Positions 39,195 to 51,123 of a stretch of DNA of 64,000 nt are shown here, piece after piece (the stretch's first letter is position 1; each line of letters starts with the position of its first letter). The translations under genes and the position numbers were made by a program. Origin of the DNA: Candidatus Krumholzibacteriota bacterium (lineage in GTDB: Bacteria > Krumholzibacteriota > Krumholzibacteriia > JAJRXK01); contig CAVXTH010000009.1 of assembly GCA_963764625.1 (NCBI GenBank), forward strand, positions 448,001 to 512,000, written 5' to 3'. The notes below the pieces were generated by a model. The model had not been told where the DNA came from. It saw nothing but the letters and a program-made list of their open reading frames with translations, and made no database searches.

Positions 39195-40037
39195 CTGTCC
39201 CTGCCCCGAGTTCAATAAGCAAGTGCAACACTTCTGGCTTAGCGACTTCCGCGCTAGAATGCGCGGATTATGTCTAAACACTACAAGCACTTGTCCGAAG
39301 AGGAGCGGGATCGTCTGGCGATCCTCAAGGGCCAGGACCTGCCGATGAGAGCGATCGCGGCTCAACTCGGTCGGTCTCCCTCGACGATCTCACGGGAGCT
39401 GCGTCGTAACGCCTCCTCCGGCAGATCAAGCGGCTATCTGCCCCATAAAGCCCAAACCGAAGCCGACCTTCGTTGGAGGCAAAGTCATCGTCGGCTGCGT
39501 CTGAAAGCCCCCTTCCTGAGGTCATATGTCCGAATCGGTCTCAAACGAGGCTGGTCACCCGAGCAGATCGCCGGACGACTTCGATACGAAGGTCACTCGC
39601 TGACCGTCAGTCACGAAGCCATCTATCAATGGATCTACCTCGAGGCTAGGGAGCTGATCCCTCGGCTCGCCAAGTCTCACCGCAAACGACTACCGCGCCG
39701 GTATTGCAAACACTCCCGATTCCGTATCCCCAACAGGGTTTTCATCTCCGAACGCCCCCAGCATGTGCTTACACGGGAATAGCCAGGACACTGGGAGGTC
39801 GACACCGCCAACTCACCTCGCGGGACGGCGGCGCTCGCTGTTGCTGTCGAACGCAAGACTCGGTACATGAGGATCAAGGCCATCTCTCGAAAAACGGCTA
39901 TGGCGTTCCGCAAGTCGCTGGTTGAAAGTCTCGGCAGCTATCCCGACCACATCCGAGCGACAATCACTTACGATAACGGTGCAGAGAACACATGCCATTG
40001 CTGGGTCGATCGCGCCCTGGGCACTCAGGCGTACTAC
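39195..40037 (+). mobile_element. IS30-family element, truncated, with TAG at 39780
   Basis: YKHLS..ER, RSPSTISRELRRN, WSPEQIAG, then GHWEVDT, VERKTRY, TITYDNG; C-terminus missing. Confidence 0.88.
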
Positions 40038-40264
40038 GACGGCCCCATTCGTGACTCTCAGCAAAACAGAGACGCCGTGCTGCGCAAGTATTCGAAACGT
40101 GCCCGAATGTGGCAAACGAAAGGCCCACCTGCGGTGAGCGATACGGCCTGCGTTAAGAAAACGAGGCCACCTGATTAGGCGGCCTCGATAAGTGGCTCCC
40201 CTTTCGTGACTCGCAGCGAAAGGGTCTATGTTCGGGGGTTGACTAGGTCCGTAATCTCTGTGGC

Positions 40265-41416
40265 TCACTGGCCGCCGCGGAAGAGAGCCTTTAGTCCTCC
40301 GAAGCTTGTGGCCTCTGTGGGCACGGGAGCTCCTGCGAAGGGTTCGAAATCCGCGATTCCTGTCTCCAGAGCGGAGTCGTGATTGTCATAGATGCGCGCA
40401 GCGATCTCCGTAGGATCGGTTGTCCCCCAGTAGTTGTTCGTGAAGTCATAATGCCTGATCTCAGGCGCGGTATCTCCCGTCAAATAAGCCAGATATCCTT
40501 GTGAAGAAATTAAGTCGTTCTCGTTGACATGCACAGTGCTAGGCGAACCAATCCATATTCCGTATAACTGTGAATTCAGCAGCTCATTCTGATGAAGGTC
40601 TACCGTAGCGTAGTTGCTGATATCAACATGCCATCCATTGTTCTGAAGCGTGTTGTCAGCAACCGTCACCACGGTCCCGCTTTCTAACAATACGATCCCA
40701 GAGTACATGACATTTTCGATTGTGCAGTTCTCGATGAACCCCGGACAATTGTCAAATTGGATTCCTACACTACCTCCATTGATATGCGTGTAGCTGATCT
40801 GAGCTTCTTGCGGTGATCCTAGCGTAATTCCATATCCGACATTATCTGTCAACTCGCAATGGCTGATGCGAATCAGTCCCCCTGTAAATGGCACATGAAT
40901 GCCGTCCTCGTTGTTATGCATGATGCTATGATCAATCGTAAGGGGACCTTCCGGCTCAAAGCCAAATTTGCAGTATCGTGCCACACAATCCGCTATGTAG
41001 AAATCCCCTAGGGAGTACGCGCCCACCCAAGTGTTCTCAAATGTCATCTTTTCGATGTGAGTTACGCTGACGTTTTGGGCGACGACCAATCCCACGGGAT
41101 CTCCCTGGGCAGTGGTGGGTGCGGTAGGACCGATGATCACGGCATCTCGATCCGTCCCTATTATCGTCAGATTGTCTACCCGAACTACTAGATGCGCGTC
41201 GCGTCGTACGCCGCTGTTGAAATAGAACTCCGTGACTTCTTCATATCTTCCAGGTCCGATCAACAGAGTATCCCCCGCTGCTGCAGCGTCGGCTGCTGGC
41301 TGCAGCAGGGTATAATCTCCCGTGCCATTTTTCATCACGGTGATGGTATTGGACCAAGCCGCCGTCGAGAGGAGAAGTAGAGCCAAACTGAATGTGGCAA
41401 GGATGGAGTTGCGCAT
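40265..41416 (-). CDS. Secreted beta-helix (NosD-like) protein ending SFGGLKALFR
   Basis: Signal peptide, GDYTLLQPA, GDTLLIGPG, NNYWG; lower GC. Confidence 0.8.
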   Translation of the reverse strand: MRNSILATFSLALLLLSTAAWSNTITVMKNGTGDYTLLQPAADAAAAGDTLLIGPGRYEEVTEFYFNSGVRRDAHLVVRVDNLTIIGTDRDAVIIGPTAPTTAQGDPVGLVVAQNVSVTHIEKMTFENTWVGAYSLGDFYIADCVARYCKFGFEPEGPLTIDHSIMHNNEDGIHVPFTGGLIRISHCELTDNVGYGITLGSPQEAQISYTHINGGSVGIQFDNCPGFIENCTIENVMYSGIVLLESGTVVTVADNTLQNNGWHVDISNYATVDLHQNELLNSQLYGIWIGSPSTVHVNENDLISSQGYLAYLTGDTAPEIRHYDFTNNYWGTTDPTEIAARIYDNHDSALETGIADFEPFAGAPVPTEATSFGGLKALFRGGQ

Positions 41417-41475
41417 GCTGTTGCCTTCTCGAACTGCGGGTTGGGGCTATGGACCCCAACCCACTACTCCTACAG

Positions 41476-41620
41476 TTAACGCACGACCGTGACGCGTGTC
41501 TTGAGGTCCTTTCCGTCCGCCAACATCCGGACAAAATAGACTCCGCTGGAAACCTGGGTTCCAGCACTGTCCTGGCCTTTCCATTGTACCACATGGGGGC
41601 CCGGCCCAAAGACCTGGGGG
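41476..41620 (-). pseudogene. FlgD-Ig C-terminal gene fragment cut by IS3
   Basis: WKGQDSAGTQVSSGVYFVRM...RVTVVR*. Confidence 0.75.
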
Positions 41621-43139
41621 TGCTTGCCGTCAGACTGATTGAGACAGATCCAAGCTAAAAATAGAGGACACTTCTGAGGTATCCTTAAGAACCCCAAAGG
41701 GAGTGTACCATGTCCGAATCTACGAGTCCCGAGTCGAAAGTCCGTGAGATCCGCCGCAAGACACGCAGACGTTACAGCGCGGAGGAGAAGATTCGTATCG
41801 TCCTGGACGGATTGAAGGGTGAGGACAGTATTGCCGAGCTCTGTCGTCGGGAGGGGATTAGCCCGAATCTCTACTACACCTGGTCCAAGGAGTTTCTGGA
41901 GGCCGGCAAGCGCCGTCTGATGGGCGACACCAAGCGCGAGGCGAGCAGCAGCGAGGTAGAGGATCTTCGTCAGGAGAACAGCGAGCTGAAGCATACGGTC
42001 GCCGATCTGACGCTGCGTGTCCGTGGGCTCAAAAAAAATATCAGTGGCTTAGACGGCGGACGGGGCCGCTGACGATGCGATTCAGTCAGCCGGAAAGGAT
42101 GGAGATCATCCGCCTGGTCGAGGAGTCGGAGCTGGGAGTGAAGCAAACGCTGCAGGAGCTGGATGTTCCTCGGAGTACCTTCTACCGCTGGTATCGGCGC
42201 TACGAGGAGGCAGGCTACGAGGGCCTGGCCTTGAGGCAATCAGCGCGGCAATTCTGGAATCGGATTCCCGATCCTGAGAGGCAGCAGGTTGTGGAAACAG
42301 CGCTGGAGAAGCCCGAGATGAGCCCCCGGGAGCTGGCCTGGCACATCACGGATACCCAGGGGCTGTACATCTCCGAGTCCAGCGTCTACCGCATCCTGAA
42401 GGACTTCGATCTGGTGACCAGTCCGCACTACATCGTGATGCACGCCGCGGATGAGTTTGCGCGGCCGACGCGGGCGATCCACGAGCTGTGGCAGACGGAT
42501 TTCACCTACTTCCGGATCGTCCACTGGGGCTGGTACTACCTGCTGACGATCCTGGACGATTACAGCCGCTACATCATCGCCTGGAAGCTCTATACGGGGA
42601 TGGGGACTGCGGATGTCACCGATCTCCTCGATGAGGCGATCGAGAAGACAGGCGCGGATCACGTGGCGGTGAAACATCGACCCAGGCTGCTTTCGGACAA
42701 TGGACCTTGCTTCGTCTCTCAGGAGCTGAAGGAGTATCTGCAGGCCCATGAGATGAGGCACACCCGTGGCAAGCCCTACCATCCGATGACGCAGGGGAAG
42801 ATCGAGCGTTACCACCGGACGATGAAGAACGTGGTGAAGCTGAAGAACTACTACGCACCGGGGGAGCTGAGCGAAGAGCTCGAGCGCTTCGTCCACTACT
42901 ACAATCACCAGCGCGTCCACGAGTCGCTGAGCAACCTGACCCCGGCTGATGTGTATCTAGGTCGGGGGCGGGAGATCCAGACGGCCCGACAGCGGCTGAA
43001 GACACAGACGCTACGCCGTCGCAAGCGTTACAACAAAGGCCTCAATCCACGGAAGGAGGAGCTGATTCTACCGTCGATCTATCGCGAAAGTGTCCTTTAG
43101 CAATCGGCGCAATTTGTCTCATTCAGTTGACGACGTACA
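41621..43139 (+). mobile_element. IS3-family insertion sequence, apparently intact
   Basis: TG...CA ends with imperfect IRs (TGCTTGCCGTCAGACTGATTGAGACAGAT / ATTTGTCTCATTCAGTTGACGACGTACA); orfA and orfB. Confidence 0.88.
41710..43100 (+). CDS. IS3 transposase OrfAB, probable programmed -1 frameshift
   Basis: orfA 41710-42072 HTH; A8 run at 42031-42038 with the -1 frame open into orfB 42075-43100 (WQTD, SDNG, KIER DDE). Confidence 0.85.
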
Positions 43140-43398
43140 GGGCTTTATGGGGCAGATAGCCGCTTGATCTGCCGGAGGAGGCGTTACGACGCAGCTCCCG
43201 TGAGATCGTCGAGGGAGACCGACCGAGTTGAGCCGCGATCGCTCTCATCGGCAGGTCCTGGCCCTTGAGGATCGCCAGACGATCCCGCTCCTCTTCGGAC
43301 AAGTGCTTGTAGTGTTTAGACATAATCCGCGCATTCTAGCGCGGAAGTCGCTAAGCCAGAAGTGTTGCACTTGCTTATTGAACTCGGGGTAGGGACAG
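43140..43398 (-). mobile_element. Second IS30 left end, inverted, truncated by IS3
   Basis: Reverse complement of about 39195-39453. Confidence 0.88.
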
Positions 43399-43772
43399 AC
43401 GCTGGTCACCCGACGACCAGAGCTGCCAAGGCAAATTTCAAACTTTACATGACTCAAGACTGGACGTATTATCCCCAAGAACCGGACAGCGCTCCCTTCC
43501 ATCGTCCGGTATTGGCTCTCACTCATGATGAAATCGTGGTCTAGGGACCAGGGCCACCCCACTCAAGAGTCTCTCGGAGTATGAGAGTTCTCTCTGAGCA
43601 GGCGTACGCTGAGTGCTGCTCTAAAGGAGGCAGAGACTTCGCTTGGCCCTCGTTGCCAAAATTAGGGTAGTGATAAATCGATGAGCTACCGCTTCGCCGC
43701 GACTTAGGGGAAATCTCACTTGCCTATGACACTGGTACTACTTGGACCAGGGAACACTGAAGGGAGAATCGC

Positions 43773-44375
43773 GTGAAGTACTTACCTTTTGTAATGCTGA
43801 TTGTCCTATCAATCGCATGTGCAAGTGCAACAGTCGCTACAGCACAATGTGAATGGTGCACTAGCATTGATGAGGAAGCTTGGTGTATCAACAACCCGAC
43901 CGGCTATGTTCTCTGCCAAACTCAAGGCGGCGGCTGTGTTTTCTCGGGCGGTACCTGTCCTTCTGGGGGTGGAAGTGGTTGCTTCCTGGAGGGGACCATG
44001 ATTTTGACTCCAAGCGGCGAAAGGCCCATCGAGTCGATCAAGACCGGTGAGTTCGTCGTCGGGAGATGTGGTGACGGCGGCACATGCGCCGAGAAGGTCA
44101 AGGCCACGATGAAGTTTCTTGCCAATGGATACTTAAGAATTAACGATGTTATTGAAGTGACTCCGACACATCCCTTCTGGGTCGGCGGCAAATGGATTCA
44201 GGCGGGCGAGCTGAAGCCTGGTGATGAACTGGAGAGTGATCAAGGGGAGAGAATGAAGGTCGCATCAATCGAATGGATCAACAAGGGTGTGCGTGTGTTG
44301 AATTTGGACGTGGGGATGAGTTCAACGTTTTATGCGAACGACATTCTTGTGCACAACAAGGAAATCATAAAGTAG
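43773..44375 (+). CDS. Secreted Cys-rich peptide fused to a Hint (bacterial intein-like) domain
   Basis: Signal peptide; 45-aa segment with 6 Cys; CFLEGT, TPTH and LVHN Hint blocks; KEIIK tail. Confidence 0.85.
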   Translation: MKYLPFVMLIVLSIACASATVATAQCEWCTSIDEEAWCINNPTGYVLCQTQGGGCVFSGGTCPSGGGSGCFLEGTMILTPSGERPIESIKTGEFVVGRCGDGGTCAEKVKATMKFLANGYLRINDVIEVTPTHPFWVGGKWIQAGELKPGDELESDQGERMKVASIEWINKGVRVLNLDVGMSSTFYANDILVHNKEIIK

Positions 44376-44485
44376 GTTCAGAAGCGGTATCTGTTGCATC
44401 CCAGTGCCACGTAGCTGGGGTGCAACACATAACTTTGATTTGCGAGCGCCATCGGACTCTTAGAGGGCGACCTTAGGGGGCACAA

Positions 44486-45547
44486 ATGAAAGCCACATTG
44501 CTTGCTGTCACATTGCTCTTCATCCAACTTCTCCTGCTCAACTCGCTGAAAGCAGGCGAGATATCTTGGGTGGAGCCGCGTGAGGCCCTACTCAAGCCGG
44601 ATTTGGTTGTTGGGGACAGTGAGAAGGAAGATGGCGTTCTGATAGGACGTGTCAACAATGTCGTGGTCGATTCACAGGGCAATTTCTACGTAGGCGATTA
44701 TGGCTTCATGTGGATTGCGTGCTTCTCAGATTCTGGAAAGTTTCTGAGAAAATTCGGATCAAAGGGCGAGGGCCCCGGTGAACTAATGAGACCATTTGTA
44801 ATGGCAATCGATAGCCGCAATCGCCTGGTGTTCGCAGGAAATGGAGGACGTGTCACGCTGCTCGACACGGAAGGAACGTTTCTCGATGAATTCACTCGAG
44901 AGGGACGAGGCTCCTTCACCTATTCTCTGCAGTTTGATTCGTTAGGAGATCTTTACGTAGTTGCGCCAGATATTTTGAACCAGCAGATGATTCATGTCTA
45001 CACGCCCCAGTGGAAGTACTTGAGATCATTCGGGGATACATATGCTGTCGGAACCAAGGAAGATACAAGGACGGAAGGTCTCTACGCATCGGGCTTTCTT
45101 TCAATAGGAACCGATGATGCGTTGTATTACGTTCAAACGTCACCCTACTTACTCCGTAAGTACAAGAGCGATGGAACTCTTGTGGCCTCGACGAATCAAG
45201 GCGTGGGAGAGTTTGTACCCAAGCCACCCGAGGTGGACTATACGGGAGCAACTATCGACGTAAAATACATTGGGGGTAGCACTGGAATCGTAGTGAGTCC
45301 TAATGAAGTGGTGATCACCACGGCCTACAGAAAGACTGAGGAAGGGGAAACAGAAAGTCTTATCCTCTTTCACGATTCGCAACTTCGACTGCTTGCCAGG
45401 CTACCGAAGAGAGGATATTGCCGCGTGGTTGGGTGCGATCATGAGGGGCGCATCTTTTTGGTGTCAAGAGCTGGGGATGTCCCCCTACTGACACGATACA
45501 GGCTGTCCTTCGAGAAGAGAGTTTCAGCAGCGTCCCGACAAGAGTAG
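44486..45547 (+). CDS. Secreted 6-bladed beta-propeller (NHL/TolB-like)
   Basis: Signal peptide; VDSQGNFYVGD, GKFLRKFGSKGEGPGE. Confidence 0.82.
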   Translation: MKATLLAVTLLFIQLLLLNSLKAGEISWVEPREALLKPDLVVGDSEKEDGVLIGRVNNVVVDSQGNFYVGDYGFMWIACFSDSGKFLRKFGSKGEGPGELMRPFVMAIDSRNRLVFAGNGGRVTLLDTEGTFLDEFTREGRGSFTYSLQFDSLGDLYVVAPDILNQQMIHVYTPQWKYLRSFGDTYAVGTKEDTRTEGLYASGFLSIGTDDALYYVQTSPYLLRKYKSDGTLVASTNQGVGEFVPKPPEVDYTGATIDVKYIGGSTGIVVSPNEVVITTAYRKTEEGETESLILFHDSQLRLLARLPKRGYCRVVGCDHEGRIFLVSRAGDVPLLTRYRLSFEKRVSAASRQE

Positions 45548-45933
45548 GCGGGGTATGCATGGAGAAGTGGCGGCGCAAACGAGCGGACCGCTAGCCCCTG
45601 ACATGCGCCCGGTGGTGAAGCGCCAGACTTACCAGAATGAAGGCTTGGTGAGTATGAGGTCCAGGGAGGATTGATTGGAAGGTTGTCGTGAGCATGGCCT
45701 GTCCAACAGAGACTGTCTGTAATCGCCGGTCCAATACTGCGGCGGGCGCCGGTCGAAAACCGCGGCATCGTGACCTTGAGATATGCACTCGGAGCGCGCC
45801 AAATTTGTCGGGTCTACAGGTTTCGCGTAACTGGTGCTGTGGCACCGACATCACTTTTTGCGTGGTTAATATTCCGTTACAGTGTAACCGGTCGCTCTAG
45901 GGAGTCTTGCGTTCTCGGTTTTGTCGCGGATTC

Positions 45934-47502
45934 CTATCTCTCATCTGCGATGGAGCGCATGGGATCGTCAGCGAAGTTCTCTTTCCACAGCCTCGGGGTC
46001 AGCTGATGGACCTTGTTGGCGGGGTGCGTTGCGATCCGCTGCAGCACATCGACCAGGTAGACGTAGGGATCGATCTCGTGCATGCGACAGGTTCGTAGTA
46101 AACTCTGGACCACGGCCACCTGCTGCGCTCCCATCTCCGTCCAACAAAAGAGCCAGTTTTTTCTTCCCAACGCAATCGGCCTGATCTCACGCTCGAGATG
46201 ATTCGTGTCCAAAGGCACGTCGGGATTCTCGAGAAATACCCTCAAGGCCTTCTCTCGATCCAGCGTGTAATGTGCCGCTTTGGTAAATAGGCTGCTGGGT
46301 AAGAGCAAGTGATCGTGAAAGGCCTCGGCAAGCCACGCAAAGAAGCGATCGACAGTCGGTTTACAATGTACCGCCCGGTAAAGCAGCGCCTTCTCTTCGG
46401 ACCGATGCTTCTCCTTTAGAATCGATTCGTGCTTGTACAGCTCGGCAATCCAATCCAGAGCCTTCTTTGCCAAAGCCGGCTCGCTCGCTTCGGCCTGCAC
46501 AAACTTGCGGCGAGTGTGACTCCAACACTGCGCGCGGGTGACACCCTCGCTTGCTTTTGCAAAGCGCTCGTAGGCCTCATAGCCATCGCTCAGGAGCACA
46601 CCCTGGTAGGCTCCCAGTGCCTCGTGAATCACCCGCGTCGCCCGCGTTGCAGCAAAGACGAAGGCGATCTCCTTCTTCTCACCGAAGATCGGCCAAAAGT
46701 AGCCGGTCTTCATCTTCCCCTTGCCCTTACGCCCCGCCTTGATCGGCGTTTCGTCCATGGCCAGCACCTGACTGTCGAGGATCGAGGAGAGCTGGGCCTG
46801 GTAGAGGGGCACCAGGAGCTCGCTGGTGCGCTGCGCCCAATTGGTCAGCGTGGAGCGACTGAGGTGGACCCCGGCCTGCTCCATGCGCTGGTGCTGGCGA
46901 TAAAGGGGTAAGTGATACACAAACTTATCGATGAGTGTACACGCTAAGACGCTCACGTCGGCCACACAGCGTTCGAGCACGGTAGGAGGGAAGTCGGGCG
47001 CAAGGAAGGCCCCATTGTCCTTGCGTTTGATCACGGGTCTGCGGTAGCGCACGATCTCGTAGGTAGCGGGCTTCTGGAGAAGACGGCTCGTGGTCTTGTG
47101 GCCGACAATATCATAGCTACCAGGATCGAGGGCCTCAGCCTCGGGGCACGCGAGAGTTTCCTCCCGCACCGGCAGTGAAGGGTCAAATCGAAGTTTGGTG
47201 CTGTCACTGGGCCCAGAAAACCGTTTGCGCCGGGCATGGCCTTCGACTTTGGTCTCCTCCACGGGTGTGGCCTCTATGGCCTGAAGGCTTTCTCCCAGGG
47301 ACAGCTGGCGGGATTCATCGAGGGTCAGGCGGCGCTCGGACTTCTCCCCGAAGAGCTGGCGTTTGAACCAATCGAGTTGGTGCTGCAGCTCGTCGATGCG
47401 CTCAGTAAGTTGTTCGTTGGTTTTCTCGATCGCAGTCTTGGCCTCGAGCAGCGCGGCAATCTCTTCGCGGTTCATCGTGTCTGCGCGCTCTAAAGAAGTC
47501 AT
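45934..47502 (-). CDS. tnpC: IS66 transposase TnpC
   Basis: FGEKSER, HLPLYRQ, MDET, CWSHTRRKF, TNHLEREIR, GRKNWLF. Confidence 0.92.
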   Translation of the reverse strand: MTSLERADTMNREEIAALLEAKTAIEKTNEQLTERIDELQHQLDWFKRQLFGEKSERRLTLDESRQLSLGESLQAIEATPVEETKVEGHARRKRFSGPSDSTKLRFDPSLPVREETLACPEAEALDPGSYDIVGHKTTSRLLQKPATYEIVRYRRPVIKRKDNGAFLAPDFPPTVLERCVADVSVLACTLIDKFVYHLPLYRQHQRMEQAGVHLSRSTLTNWAQRTSELLVPLYQAQLSSILDSQVLAMDETPIKAGRKGKGKMKTGYFWPIFGEKKEIAFVFAATRATRVIHEALGAYQGVLLSDGYEAYERFAKASEGVTRAQCWSHTRRKFVQAEASEPALAKKALDWIAELYKHESILKEKHRSEEKALLYRAVHCKPTVDRFFAWLAEAFHDHLLLPSSLFTKAAHYTLDREKALRVFLENPDVPLDTNHLEREIRPIALGRKNWLFCWTEMGAQQVAVVQSLLRTCRMHEIDPYVYLVDVLQRIATHPANKVHQLTPRLWKENFADDPMRSIADER

Positions 47503-47511
47503 GCATTCTTT

Positions 47512-47865
47512 CTAGCGCATTTGTGATCTTCTTCCAAGTGGAATCCCATCCAAGAGCAAACGGAACGCCTTCTCGCTCAGCTCCTGTTTCGCCGAGGAAT
47601 CCGGCAGGACAAAGCGGCCGCGTTCGAGGCGTTTCGCAAAGAGACAAAAGCCAGTGCGATCCCAGTACACCAGCTTCAGATAATTGCGGCGGCGGTTGAA
47701 GAAGACGAAGAGCGTCCCCGTGAGCGGGTCTTCTGCGAGCACACTTGTAACCACTCCCAAAAGCCCATCGAACTGTTTGCGCATGTCGACCGGCTCGCGG
47801 TAGGCGAGGATACGAGGGACAGTGGACGAAAACAGCACGCCTAGCTCCGCAGCCGGAGAACGCAT
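47512..47865 (-). CDS. tnpB: IS66 accessory protein TnpB
   Basis: PVDMRKQFDGL, WDRTGF..KRLERGRF. Confidence 0.9.
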   Translation of the reverse strand: MRSPAAELGVLFSSTVPRILAYREPVDMRKQFDGLLGVVTSVLAEDPLTGTLFVFFNRRRNYLKLVYWDRTGFCLFAKRLERGRFVLPDSSAKQELSEKAFRLLLDGIPLGRRSQMR

Positions 47866-48152
47866 CCGCCGGGCAGCTCGAGCTCGACGGTCCAGGGGGC
47901 AAGCTCTTCCCTTTGCGGAGTGATCTCCACGAAGGACTCCTGCGCAGTCTGCGAATTCGTCTCGGCCAAAGTAACCTCAGAACGGCGTTGCGAACTCCTC
48001 AACTTCCGATGCCAGCGCGCGAAGCTGGCCGCATGGATGTGCTCTCGTTCGCAGAACTTCTCACGGCTCAATCTGCTCTTATCGAAGCTATCGAAGATCT
48101 CCGACCACTCCGCGGCGCTGCGGTGAACCTTACCATCGGCGGTGACTCGCAT
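47841..48152 (-). CDS. tnpA: IS66 accessory protein TnpA
   Basis: W..S.LS..FC.RE HTH and FVE...VELELPGG. Confidence 0.8.
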   Translation of the reverse strand: MRVTADGKVHRSAAEWSEIFDSFDKSRLSREKFCEREHIHAASFARWHRKLRSSQRRSEVTLAETNSQTAQESFVEITPQREELAPWTVELELPGGCVLRLRS

Positions 48153-48254
48153 GAAATCCTCCTCGTTGGAACTCCAGGACCAATCACCGATCCTGGCTAC
48201 GAAAAGGATGTAGCAAATCATGAGCAGTATGGGAATACTCCCCAGAGTGACCGG

Positions 48255-49333
48255 TTACTTTGCGGCTGCCCACCTGCGTAGCACTCTTCGCTCCATATTC
48301 GCGTACTTCTCAGCTGAACGTACATAGGCAAAAGTTGACATATCCTCATCCTCTGTTGATGTCGTGAATGAATCAACTAGCACATCTTTGGCTGTAGGCC
48401 AAAATGCACTCCAGTGTCCATCAAAGTTTGGAGTACTCGTGACCACATGGAGGATGGAGCTCGGTTCAATTTCCTTGCGTGCATATACGCCAGCCAGCGC
48501 GAGCGCATGGAATCGAAGTCGTCGCAAGAAGCGAAGCTCTGGAGTCTCCTTCGCAGTTCTCTTGCAGTCATCACTGATCCGAAGGTAAAAAGCAAGGGCG
48601 AGGAGGAGTTCACCAAAAGTGTCTTCCGACCAGAGGTTTTCTATTTTTCCATCAACACCAAAAGCACGCTCATATGCTCCACCAGATTCTGCATGTGTCC
48701 AGAGTGATTTGGGAGCGGAATGAATGAGTGTCGGTTCCTCCAAGAACGCATAACGAATCTTGGCCATCTCTTCCAATTTGATGCCTGTGCCAGTGCCGCG
48801 TCTCCCAACAGCACGCTTGCGCACATACTTAATTTTCGGCAGAGGACCGCGGGCCTTGCGATCCTTAAATTGTTTCTCTAGGAACAACTGAATCGGGTCA
48901 TTTGACCTGAAATCCGATACCTTGATTTGATTCTGAGAGTTGTTGAACTGTATGATCTGACGATTGAATCCCTTTTCCGTCTTGTAGTCTTCGCTTTGTG
49001 TCAGTCGAAACAGTACTTCCACTTCTTTCAGTGGAGGCTGGTTCGCCAAGCTGGAGACAGTCTGCGCCCCATTGATTATTTGCATGTTCTCCGCGGTCAG
49101 CCTGTTACCGTCGACATCAAATGATGTGCATATTGCGGACACTCCGTTATTGAAGTAGAAGAACTTCTCTGGATCTTCAGATGCGGTCTGGCCTATTGCT
49201 TTGTTTATCCCCCGATTCCCCAGATATCCCCTTATGTTGAATGCGTAGAGGGAGTGTCGATACTGATTAGCCAAGTTGCGTAGAGAGTTGCCTTTAATAC
49301 AAGCAATGAGAGTTCGATAGGGCTCCTCCTTCT
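48255..49333 (-). pseudogene. AIPR-family (abortive infection phage resistance) fragment
   Basis: NIRGYLG, FFYFNNGV, QIINGAQT, NSQN; frame open up to the ori junction; stop codon supplied by the IS66 IR; low GC. Confidence 0.82.
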
Positions 49334-51123
49334 ACGGATAGTGGATTGTATACGGCGCTTTAGCTGAAAAGCGAGCACCGAACTTCAGAACGGGTGCTCT
49401 TTGCGCTGTGTTCTCGGTGCGATGATCACGATGAGGATTGATTGTCGATCCCCGACTCACCCTACCGCAACTCTGTTCGCCCGACATGCGCCCACCTGAG
49501 CGGCTTCCACCTATCCTTGGGCACACCGTACTCCCGACGCTCGTGCCCTTGCGCGTTCGTCGGGAGGCTGAGGGTACTGGTAGGGGTTCATGCTCTTGGC
49601 GGAGCTCGTTGCGCCGTCCCCTCGTGCGGGTCGTTGCCGCCGATCCGTACCAGGTGTCTGAGAATCCGGTCCACCACCGCTGCTTCGTCGATCACCGACA
49701 CGATCTTCATGGTTCCCCCGCACTGCGGGCAGAGCATGGGGTCCAGCTCGAAGATCCTGCGCAGCAGGCGTGCCCAGCTGCGGCTGCGCGCAGTGGACGG
49801 TGCCCTGGCGATCGTCGCGTCCTGGGGGTTGGCTCTTGCCCCTCGGGCCCGGTGCGAGTACCAGCCGTAGTATCTGACCAAATGCTGCCGTGGCGCGGGG
49901 ATCTGGGCGCACAGACGGCGGATCATCTCCAGAACATCGAGTTCGAGATCACGTTGGCCGGTGCTGGGATGGATCGGTGTCCGAACCCGAACCTGCTTGG
50001 CGTCGAGCGGGGTGATCGCGTCGAGCCGGATCGGCGCGCGGGTGATGTATCGCGCGAGATGCTCCTGGCGCTCGGTGTGATCGGGCAGCACCGGCTCGCC
50101 GGCATGGACCCCGAAGCCCGAGTGCTGCCATGACAGGAGCATGGCCTCGGTCTCCTCGCGCAGGCGCTTCGCGCGCCGGAGCTCTTTAAGCACCAGCCGT
50201 CGGAACAGCTCAGTCAGCGTCTTCTGATCCCACCACTCGACGCGCTCAAACCATGGATCGCCGCGGCGCGGTAGGTGGAACGCTCCCTCGGTGATCAGCG
50301 CGTGGACGTGCGGATGGAAGTTCGCGGCGTAGCTGCCGAAGGTCTGGATCGACGCGATTGTGCCCACCTGCGCCCGGGGGTCATCGACCGCCTCGCACAG
50401 CAGGCGCTGGGTCGCCTGGTGCGCGCAGCGCGGAAGGATCGACAACAGTCGGCGCTCCCGCTCGAACAATCCACGGATCACCTTGGGTACCGTGAACACC
50501 ACGTGGCGGTGGGCAACCGGGCTGAGCACCTCCTCGACCAGATGTTCAGCAAAAAGAGCAGCGCGCTTGGCCTGGCAGCTCGGACAGAAGTTGCGGGTCT
50601 GGCAGCTGAACGCCAGCAGGTGCTCGCCGTGACAGTTCGGGCAGCGGATGCGCGCGAAGCCGCCTTCGAGGCGACCGCACTCGAGATACTGGTCAACCAC
50701 GCGTCGCACAACAGCGCGCAAGGGGCCGTACTGGTGCTCGAAGCGCTCGTCGTACTCGCGGAAGAAACGCTCACCGTGGCGGTCGAAGAGTTGGTAGAGC
50801 GCGGTGCGCTCAGGATGGCGGGGCCGGTAGAGCCTGACGAAAGATGCAACCGCGGTACCTGGCAAAATGCCTCCCAGAGAGGGAGGCATTCGCGTGCTTC
50901 GACGCTCCTGCATGGATAGGGGAGGCCAGAGAGCATGGCAACACAACCCTTGTCGAGGTGGCACGGGCTCTTCAGGTGCATGTGATTTCGCGTAGACTTG
51001 GGCCGGCGATCAAGTTTGATGAACTCGCGCCGTTGCTCGTCCGTCGGAAGCCTGGGCGGCATCGTATAGTCGCGCCGTCGCCCCCTTGAAAAACTTCATC
51101 GAAGCCCATTGCACACTCATCTG
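49334..51123 (-). mobile_element. Full-length IS91/ISCR-like rolling-circle element (1790 bp), copy 6
   Basis: Ori end about 250 bp downstream of the transposase stop; far boundary ...CACACTCATCTG defined by shared end with the 60117 copy. Confidence 0.92.
49588..50964 (-). CDS. IS91/ISCR-family HUH transposase
   Basis: YRPRHPE; Zn-binding CG..CPNC..SC..FCPSC; HPHVH (HUH); LARYITR; RYYG; C-terminal DP..CPQCG; start uncertain. Confidence 0.93.
   Translation of the reverse strand: MPPRQGLCCHALWPPLSMQERRSTRMPPSLGGILPGTAVASFVRLYRPRHPERTALYQLFDRHGERFFREYDERFEHQYGPLRAVVRRVVDQYLECGRLEGGFARIRCPNCHGEHLLAFSCQTRNFCPSCQAKRAALFAEHLVEEVLSPVAHRHVVFTVPKVIRGLFERERRLLSILPRCAHQATQRLLCEAVDDPRAQVGTIASIQTFGSYAANFHPHVHALITEGAFHLPRRGDPWFERVEWWDQKTLTELFRRLVLKELRRAKRLREETEAMLLSWQHSGFGVHAGEPVLPDHTERQEHLARYITRAPIRLDAITPLDAKQVRVRTPIHPSTGQRDLELDVLEMIRRLCAQIPAPRQHLVRYYGWYSHRARGARANPQDATIARAPSTARSRSWARLLRRIFELDPMLCPQCGGTMKIVSVIDEAAVVDRILRHLVRIGGNDPHEGTAQRAPPRA

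Follow-up and report, generated by a model that had tools for sequence, protein, structure and literature searches.

A family of minimal bacterial intein-like proteins and its neighbouring six-bladed beta-propeller in the phylum Krumholzibacteriota

Two adjacent genes in the window

Two adjacent genes, here termed gene A and gene B, were analyzed in a 64,000-nucleotide stretch of DNA from a Candidatus Krumholzibacteriota bacterium (contig CAVXTH010000009.1, positions 448,001 to 512,000; the whole stretch is called the window, and all coordinates refer to it unless stated otherwise). Gene A (43773-44375, forward strand) is an open reading frame (ORF) of 200 amino acids with a GTG start codon, and a Shine-Dalgarno-like GGGAG (43762..43766, forward strand) is seen in the sequence 6 nt 5' of the GTG. 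An earlier note, made from the letters of the window, had given the protein sequence of gene A, and its string is identical to the translation of 43773-44375. The protein is laid out as MKYLPFVMLIVLSIACASATVATA, followed by QCEWC...GGGSG, CFLEGT..., TPTHPF, ...LVHN and finally KEIIK and the stop codon.

Four parts can be distinguished in gene A, all on the forward strand. The putative signal peptide (residues 1-24; 43773..43844) ends in ...ATVATA, and its cleavage after ...ATA (Ala24) was judged by eye. It is followed by QCEWCTSIDEEAWCINNPTGYVLCQTQGGGCVFSGGTCPSGGGSG and then by CFLEGT.... Sequence and alignment place a six-cysteine module with a Gly-rich linker at residues 25-69 (43845..43979); this segment is the N-extein, and its last residue is Gly69. 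The Hint domain (residues 70-195; 43980..44357) carries Cys70, Thr130-x-x-His133 (TPTH, residues 130-133) and His194-Asn195 (VHN, residues 193-195). In the translation, the C-extein tail KEIIK (residues 196-200) and the stop codon complete the gene (44358..44375). The signal peptide, six-cysteine peptide and Hint domain proposed in the earlier note are thus all present, the leader as judged by eye and the Hint domain by Pfam; its statement that a toxin domain is lacking also holds, with only five residues after Asn195.

The copy of gene A in the protein database (P0001) is a 125-residue call that begins at Met76 and lacks the signal peptide, the cysteine module and Cys70. Both the search and the alignment described below show homologues matching the gene A protein from residue 3-10 onwards, and the long GTG-start ORF is therefore the real gene A. 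Internal starts at Met76 give products of 125-127 amino acids devoid of signal peptide, cysteine module and catalytic cysteine (P0001, P0131 and P0168); besides P0001, two cluster representatives match only from residue 76. The family is therefore probably under-counted in protein databases: gene callers shorten genes of this type at an internal Met, and the family is thereby hidden.

Gene B (44486..45547, forward strand; 353 amino acids) starts 110 nt after gene A on the same strand. Its product has an N-terminal hydrophobic leader and matches the Pfam family DUF5128, '6-bladed beta-propeller' (E-value 4e-6). The AlphaFold2 model is a propeller, with a mean predicted local distance difference test (pLDDT) score of 85.9, and the top Foldseek matches in the PDB are the NHL domains of TRIM, Brat and Thin; four of five neighbouring propeller homologues also match Pfam NHL. 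Leader, DUF5128 match and model agree with the secreted six-bladed propeller that the earlier note had recognized in the next gene, and gene B is accordingly treated as an exported propeller of the NHL type. A propeller enzyme (PAL, lactonases or ScyF) was considered and rejected, the ScyF model scoring 56 bits against a cut-off of 350. No enzymes were found among the top structural matches of the model, and no invariant His or Cys in the alignment of 10 propeller sequences. A literature search returned no papers mentioning 'DUF5128'.

Classification of the Hint domain

Pfam assigned residues 76-195 of the gene A protein to PT-HINT (PF07591; E-value 9.2e-14, 52.3 bits versus a cut-off of 27.7), and a match to Hint_2 (residues 70-100) took in Cys70. 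In a sequence search of the PDB, the closest solved relative of the family profile was 2LWY, a 'bacterial intein-like domain' from Clostridium thermocellum (E-value 7.5e-27). The AlphaFold2 model of the protein had a mean pLDDT of 86.9, with values of ~89-98 in the Hint part; the cysteine module was modelled as four short strands (block-mean pLDDT ~59-82). Foldseek likewise placed 2lwy first (template modelling score 0.86; root-mean-square deviation 1.6), followed by BIL2 of the Tetrahymena BUBL protein and then by mini-inteins, with Hedgehog in 26th position. NCBIfam gave nothing useful, and PADLOC gave no match to gene A or gene B.

Judged by its sequence, the domain has every feature expected of a type-A bacterial intein-like (BIL) domain: Cys1, TxxH, a terminal His-Asn and no nucleophile at the +1 position (type-A BILs: Amitai et al. 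2003 and Dassa et al. 2004, as cited in PMC4031507). BIL domains are described as lacking a +1 nucleophile and as acting through N-terminal thioester formation and cyclisation of the terminal Asn, mostly with cleaved products; their flanks can also be joined via the freed alpha-amine (PMC4031507, PMC7664689). The thioesters of type-A BILs are reported to be open to attack by a free alpha-amine (PMC4031507). The earlier note had stressed that the +1 residue is Lys rather than Cys, Ser or Thr. This was borne out (Lys196), although the residue is not peculiar to gene A: it recurs across the whole Hint clade, in 232 of 296 domains.

Gene A resembles the type-A BIL of C. thermocellum (2LWY) in its Hint fold, Cys1, block-B TxxH and C-terminal His-Asn. 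Neither has Cys, Ser or Thr at +1, and neither contains an endonuclease; by analogy, the chemistry of both would be thioester formation and Asn cyclisation with cleavage dominant. Unlike in other type-A BIL proteins, the BIL domain makes up two thirds of an exported protein of 200 amino acids, to which only a six-cysteine peptide and a tail of 5-7 residues are added, and the neighbouring propeller gene is conserved. With the polymorphic toxins that carry PT-HINT (CdiA, Rhs, MafB), gene A shares a PF07591 match above the cut-off. In contrast to them, it has neither a toxin domain after the Hint domain nor a large carrier before it, and the small cytoplasmic immunity protein encoded next door in those systems is replaced by an exported propeller of 350 amino acids. 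A canonical intein was also rejected: the flanks of the domain are a signal peptide with a cysteine module and a tail of five amino acids, and the +1 residue is Lys.

The topology of gene A is that of Hedgehog and Hog proteins, in which a signal peptide leads to a cargo ending in Gly, then Cys-Phe and a C-terminal Hint domain; by this analogy, the cargo would leave through the thioester. The similarity to Hedgehog is weak (E-value ~1e-3 in sequence, in addition to the low structural rank). Unlike Hedgehog and Hog, gene A has no sterol-recognition region, retains the C-terminal His-Asn and ends five residues beyond it, and its assignment to these proteins was rejected on the same grounds. Tetrahymena BUBL BIL2 (PDB 6Y75/6TMM) shares with gene A an N-extein ending in Gly. 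It is reported to conjugate its N-extein to substrates without ATP through an isopeptide bond to the Lys epsilon-amine and thus offers a precedent for Lys-directed, ATP-independent ligation (PMC8616854). In contrast to gene A, its N-extein is ubiquitin-like and the protein eukaryotic and cytosolic, with an identity of only 23-24%.

Two other groups of proteins come close to the gene A architecture. One, mentioned in PMC2362128, consists of other secreted proteins from bacteria, in which two conserved cysteines precede a C-terminal Hint-like domain. In addition, uncultured bacteria and archaea encode long secreted proteins that end in a cysteine-rich stretch, a Hint domain of the HNK type and a short tail (loci L049, L066, L088, L089, L090 and L100). 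These share with gene A the Hint clade, the cysteine-rich stretch before Cys1, the +1 Lys and the short tail; in contrast, they are 400-1400 amino acids in length, and a propeller of the gene B family occurs in none of their loci. Relative to them, the gene A family is, as judged from sequence comparison, a minimal form and a separate clade.

The gene A protein therefore belongs to the type-A BIL / PT-HINT class, and neither to the polymorphic toxins nor to the inteins or the Hedgehog proteins; what is new is the minimal BIL family and its partner. Literature searches, which did not extend to supplements, returned no description of a minimal protein consisting of signal peptide, six-cysteine peptide, BIL domain and short tail, and none of a propeller pairing with such a protein.

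A single family of small homologues

An exhaustive HMMER search with the gene A protein against 1.84 billion representatives gave 11,867 matches at E <= 1e-3. Among the best 149 non-self matches, 45 were single-Hint proteins of no more than 240 amino acids that aligned with gene A nearly end to end, 97 carried two to seven Hint domains, often back to back, and seven were of other types. The search for the combination of signal peptide, cysteine-rich segment and Hint domain that the earlier note had proposed thus recovered a family of ~45 unnamed homologues of ~200 amino acids with the same layout. Ten members that were looked up are unnamed or 'hypothetical', and most are singletons on short contigs. 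Among the multi-Hint matches, P0034-P0043 and others are proteins of ~850-1100 amino acids with three to five (in one case seven) back-to-back Hint domains, often almost free of spacers, and end in a C-terminal region of ~430 amino acids.

No full-length family matches (E <= 1e-45) were found in 193 sampled genomes of neighbouring phyla, in 401 genomes sampled from the phylum of genome G208 or in 301 from that of G210. In the ESM Atlas, gene A retrieved generic Hint clusters only, with every score below 0.9.

The gene A protein was aligned with 40 small matches chosen by length (41 members), whose identity to it is only 32-45%. Nevertheless, C26, C48, C55, Cys70, His194 and Asn195 are invariant, and C29, C38, C62, Phe71, Thr130, His133 and Lys196 are conserved in at least 90% of the members. 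All 41 have a hydrophobic leader. The cysteine module (median length 44 amino acids) contains six cysteines in 31 members, seven in four and eight in six; the positions between them are nearly all variable, such that the module retains only its cysteines and one Gly. The residue preceding Cys70 is Gly in 35 of 41 members, and position -2 relative to the first conserved cysteine is Ala, Gly or Ser in 25. The net charge of the module is negative in 39 members, and its Lys content is 1.0%. The C-terminal tail has a median length of 7 amino acids (range 4-29) and a Pro content of 23%; its first residue is Lys in 40 of 41 cases.

In a FastTree phylogeny of 251 Hint domains, all 51 family tips fell together. 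IQ-TREE, run on the 51 family rows and a random draw of 45 of the 200 other domains, also recovered the family as one branch (Shimodaira-Hasegawa-like approximate likelihood-ratio test 94; none of 500 shuffles was as low), and a careful tree with three outgroup domains supported the branch at 100/97. These phylogenies indicate that the small architecture was inherited as one family and was not produced by truncation. The earlier note had envisaged that homologues might normally be long toxins, of which gene A would be a truncated copy; the ~45 small homologues of the same layout, united in one Hint clade, speak otherwise.

Linkage to the propeller gene across the phylum

PT-HINT occurs once in the genome to which the window belongs, and of 208 genomes from the phylum, 9 carry the gene A family at E <= 1e-30. 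The surroundings of the carrier genes were extracted and all ORFs searched with a hidden Markov model of the propeller; three linked sites that were found twice (L025, L026 and L069, with identical ORFs) were counted once. In eight of the nine carrier genomes, the Hint gene directly adjoins a same-strand propeller gene of the gene B family, the co-occurrence that the earlier note had suggested looking for. The propeller lies downstream of the Hint gene in four genomes (G000, which is that of the window, G001, G007 and G170) and upstream in three (G056, G057 and G195), while G055 has one on each side. In G018, the genome with the ninth copy, an IS3 element cuts the Hint gene, which lies on a 9-kb contig, and the propeller is found on another contig. 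The remaining flanking genes differ in each genome checked; they include tRNA synthetases, penicillin amidase, dihydroorotate dehydrogenase, a permease, oxidoreductases or IS3 elements.

The pairs have diverged strongly, with identities of 33-49% among the Hint proteins and 22-38% among the propellers; the two pairs from a single genus share 38% in both. Five of the nine Hint genes are intact, one ends at a contig edge and three are decayed. The propeller family is wider than the Hint family and occurs in 30 of the 208 genomes (36 matches). Four of the loci with a solo propeller are short contigs, and no Hint gene of the family was found anywhere in those genomes. The propeller tree comprised 30 rows, two partial rows and four second copies without a locus having been omitted.

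On this tree, gene B is sister to a solo lipoprotein paralogue from its own genome, with which it shares 55% identity (G000:C9:674339-675355; locus L009, 5337-6374, reverse strand). The paralogue has a leader of the lipoprotein type (LASC), has no Hint neighbour and lies directly 3' of a DegV/DAK-type gene, and G002 is arranged likewise. It appears vertically inherited, and the Hint-linked gene B may derive from it. Other observations concern the neighbours of solo propellers. Secreted, Hint-free proteins with 8-12 cysteines and 63% mutual identity follow solo propellers in two genomes (L215, 150-857, and L206, 764-1258, both on the reverse strand) and are possible alternative partners; as a general partner of solo propellers they were rejected, recurring in two loci only. 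ORFs of ~90-100 amino acids that consist almost wholly of Lys/Arg/Ala/Val repeats (KRKAKRKV...) lie downstream of solo propellers in two genomes, at L205 (2582-2884) and L207 (2601-2873).

Predicted complex of the two proteins

Both proteins were co-folded in their mature forms, the propeller from residue 24 to 353 (with an alignment of 10 sequences) and the gene A protein from residue 25 to 200 (with one of 41). The co-fold score was 0.76, as compared with 0.01 for the best of three controls. Among solved complexes, 116 of 157 attain this mark, as do 2 of 215 mismatched pairs; the counts are only approximate because our own alignments were used in the co-fold. Three runs shared at least 90% of their contacts, and the pLDDT of the partner was at least 82. 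To our knowledge, no complex of a BIL domain with a propeller has been solved, and it therefore seems unlikely that the predictor merely reproduced a known structure. The controlled co-fold thus supports, at the level of a model, binding between the products of gene A and gene B.

The predicted interface comprises residues 28-59 of the cysteine module, Hint residues 114-118 and 170-174, and propeller residues across several blades, among them the invariant D193 and R195 and the loop 255-261. The cysteine module and a Hint loop are placed on the same face of the propeller, while the scissile bond (69/70) and Lys196 lie outside the confident contacts. The earlier note had advised co-folding the peptide with the propeller: binding is indeed predicted, although the interface extends beyond the peptide into the Hint domain.

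Proposed mechanism and alternatives

Our preferred interpretation, held with moderate confidence, is a two-gene exported cassette in which gene A encodes a self-cleaving BIL pro-protein that releases a six-cysteine peptide and gene B its binding partner. The pro-protein would be exported by the Sec pathway and then lose its signal peptide. The BIL domain would turn the Gly69-Cys70 peptide bond into a thioester, Asn195 would cyclise and, by analogy with characterised BILs, the main outcome would be cleavage. The freed product would be an acidic peptide of ~44 residues with three putative disulfides and a variable surface, possibly with the 5-residue tail still attached. One face of the NHL propeller would bind the pro-protein, the peptide or both, and the propeller would serve as the working partner. 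The biological role is most likely that of a fast-diversifying ligand-receptor or toxin-immunity pair; such a pair fits the rapid divergence, the patchy distribution, the insertion sequence (IS) neighbours, the decay of peptide genes beside intact propellers and the variable interface.

Several observations weigh against this interpretation. In 22 of the 30 loci examined, the propeller is unpaired and a Hint gene is missing within 1.5 kb of it. Propellers that are linked to a Hint gene are scattered over the propeller tree instead of forming a clade (8 changes for 9 labelled rows; shuffled mean 7.9), and pairwise identity among the Hint proteins shows no correlation with that among their linked propellers (Mantel r -0.2, p 0.76, 6 pairs). 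The linkage counts cover the nine carrier genomes of the phylum, and ~44 metagenomic family members stand outside them. Three copies are decayed, through a stop or frameshift in G170, loss of the N-terminal half in G195 and the IS3 cut in G018. The co-fold score is the model's own confidence and not a measurement, and the predicted interface is less conserved than the remainder (0.44 versus 0.54 and 0.35 versus 0.54); such variability fits a diversifying interface, but surface exposure alone could explain it. In the periplasm, Cys70 might become oxidised. Finally, no route of export across the outer membrane is evident, and 'secreted' may therefore mean periplasmic only. The self-maturing peptide with a cognate propeller that the earlier note had put forward is partly supported, by the conserved architecture, the catalytic residues, the pairing in eight of nine genomes and the predicted binding. 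Self-cleavage, its product (released, spliced to the tail, cyclised or conjugated) and a function of the propeller as receptor or immunity protein are putative, and most propellers of the family have no Hint neighbour.

If the role were more narrowly one of toxin and immunity, the BIL domain would free an antibacterial or otherwise antagonistic disulfide-rich peptide, and the propeller would confer immunity in the periplasm by sequestering this peptide or its pro-protein. This we consider unlikely, even though a number of findings are in its favour: the presence in only 9 of 208 genomes, IS3 elements adjoining the pair in three genomes, extreme divergence even inside one genus, and the variable predicted interface. 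Moreover, three of nine peptide genes have decayed beside intact propellers, the many solo propellers recall orphan immunity genes, and PT-HINT is elsewhere a module of polymorphic toxins. Set against these are the anionic module (39 of 41 members), unlike typical cationic peptide toxins, and the lack of a toxin domain, a recognisable export system or a mirror-tree signal. The solo propeller beside the DegV-type gene in G000 and G002, moreover, looks vertically inherited. Compared with neighbours of the immunity type, the propeller gene is conserved and its product a predicted binder, but it is exported, lies upstream in three genomes and is often solo. The anionic peptide and the missing export route also speak against a classical bacteriocin.

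A bolder proposal, and one that we regard as similarly doubtful, is that the BIL domain serves as a single-use, ATP-free extracytoplasmic ligase held by the propeller, in which the Gly69 thioester would be passed to an amine or to the N-terminus of the peptide itself, with the module becoming attached or cyclised. If true, this would give bacteria an equivalent of Hedgehog lipidation or of the BUBL 'ubiquitination by splicing'. In the first of its two forms, the six-cysteine module would be attached via Gly69 to the epsilon-amine of the +1 Lys, to a propeller Lys or to an amine of the envelope. The ATP-free conjugation reported for BUBL BIL2 (PMC8616854), the second-best structural match, the prevalence of the +1 Lys (40 of 41 members; 232 of 296 clade domains), an N-extein that is Gly-terminated in 35 of 41 and Lys-depleted (1.0%), and a propeller predicted to hold the pro-protein are all consistent with ligation. 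It becomes still less probable in view of the position of bond 69/70 and Lys196, neither of them among the confident interface residues, the absence of an invariant Lys from the propeller alignment and the predominance of cleavage in characterised BILs (PMC4031507, PMC7664689).

Head-to-tail cyclisation, the second form, would require the N-terminus freed by signal peptidase to attack the thioester, giving a cyclic peptide with three disulfides. The first conserved cysteine lies 0-2 residues past the likely signal-peptidase site, and attack by a free alpha-amine on a type-A BIL thioester is described (PMC4031507). However, the residue before the first cysteine is Ala, Gly, Ser, Thr or Cys in just 20 of 41 members; in about half it is an unlikely -1 residue for signal peptidase, and an N-terminal cysteine is therefore not general. 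We consider cyclisation very improbable. Least credible of all is a remnant of a long PT-HINT toxin stripped of its N-terminal carrier and C-terminal toxin domain among IS elements: PT-HINT normally sits before toxin domains and the locus is IS-dense, but the 200-residue layout recurs in the divergent homologues with signal peptide, cysteine framework and short tail conserved, the small homologues form one clade, and intact copies elsewhere lie among housekeeping genes.

The cassette that we favour bears on a wider question, BIL/PT-HINT domains being very common (the 11,867 matches above) while their purpose outside polymorphic toxins is largely obscure. With a single peptide, a single BIL domain and a single predicted partner, the gene A family is the smallest natural BIL setting found, and therefore a clean system in which to learn what a secreted BIL does with its thioester. 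Release of the peptide would represent a ribosomal route to disulfide-rich peptides without a separate protease; ligation would represent a new extracytoplasmic conjugation chemistry.

Genomic surroundings of the gene pair

Both genes lie on a segment of lower G+C content, as the earlier note had observed: 0.49-0.53 over 43500-45500 versus 0.55-0.61 on either side. A search of 43100-45950 against Rfam gave nothing above threshold, and scans for promoters, terminators and repeats around the pair were uninformative. Sequencing runs contained only short contigs identical to parts of the 64-kb stretch. One of these, a 209-nt metatranscriptome contig, is identical to 43600-43766 and ends 7 nt before the GTG of gene A, too little to call a transcript or to point to a habitat.

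The pair is situated inside a dense patch of insertion sequences (39270-50964) together with cargo genes of low G+C content. To its left lies an IS3-family element with OrfA and OrfB (41710..43100, forward strand; Pfam rve, HTH_32 and related), followed by a helix-turn-helix fragment of an IS30-type transposase in an ORF of 66 amino acids (43123..43323, reverse strand; Pfam HTH_38, E-value 4.6e-18). To its right lies an IS66-family element of three ORFs (45934..48221, reverse strand; Pfam DDE_Tnp_IS66 and TnpB_IS66). An AIPR/AbiU-like ORF (48255-49274, reverse strand) adjoins this element. Its match to the AbiU model (537 positions) is confined to positions 239-422, which makes it an abortive-infection gene truncated at the N-terminal end. 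An IS91/Y2-type transposase (49588-50964) closes the patch on the right, and a second IS30-type helix-turn-helix fragment (39270-39782) opens it on the left, where it is followed by the low-G+C cargo gene of a secreted right-handed beta-helix protein (40265-41416).

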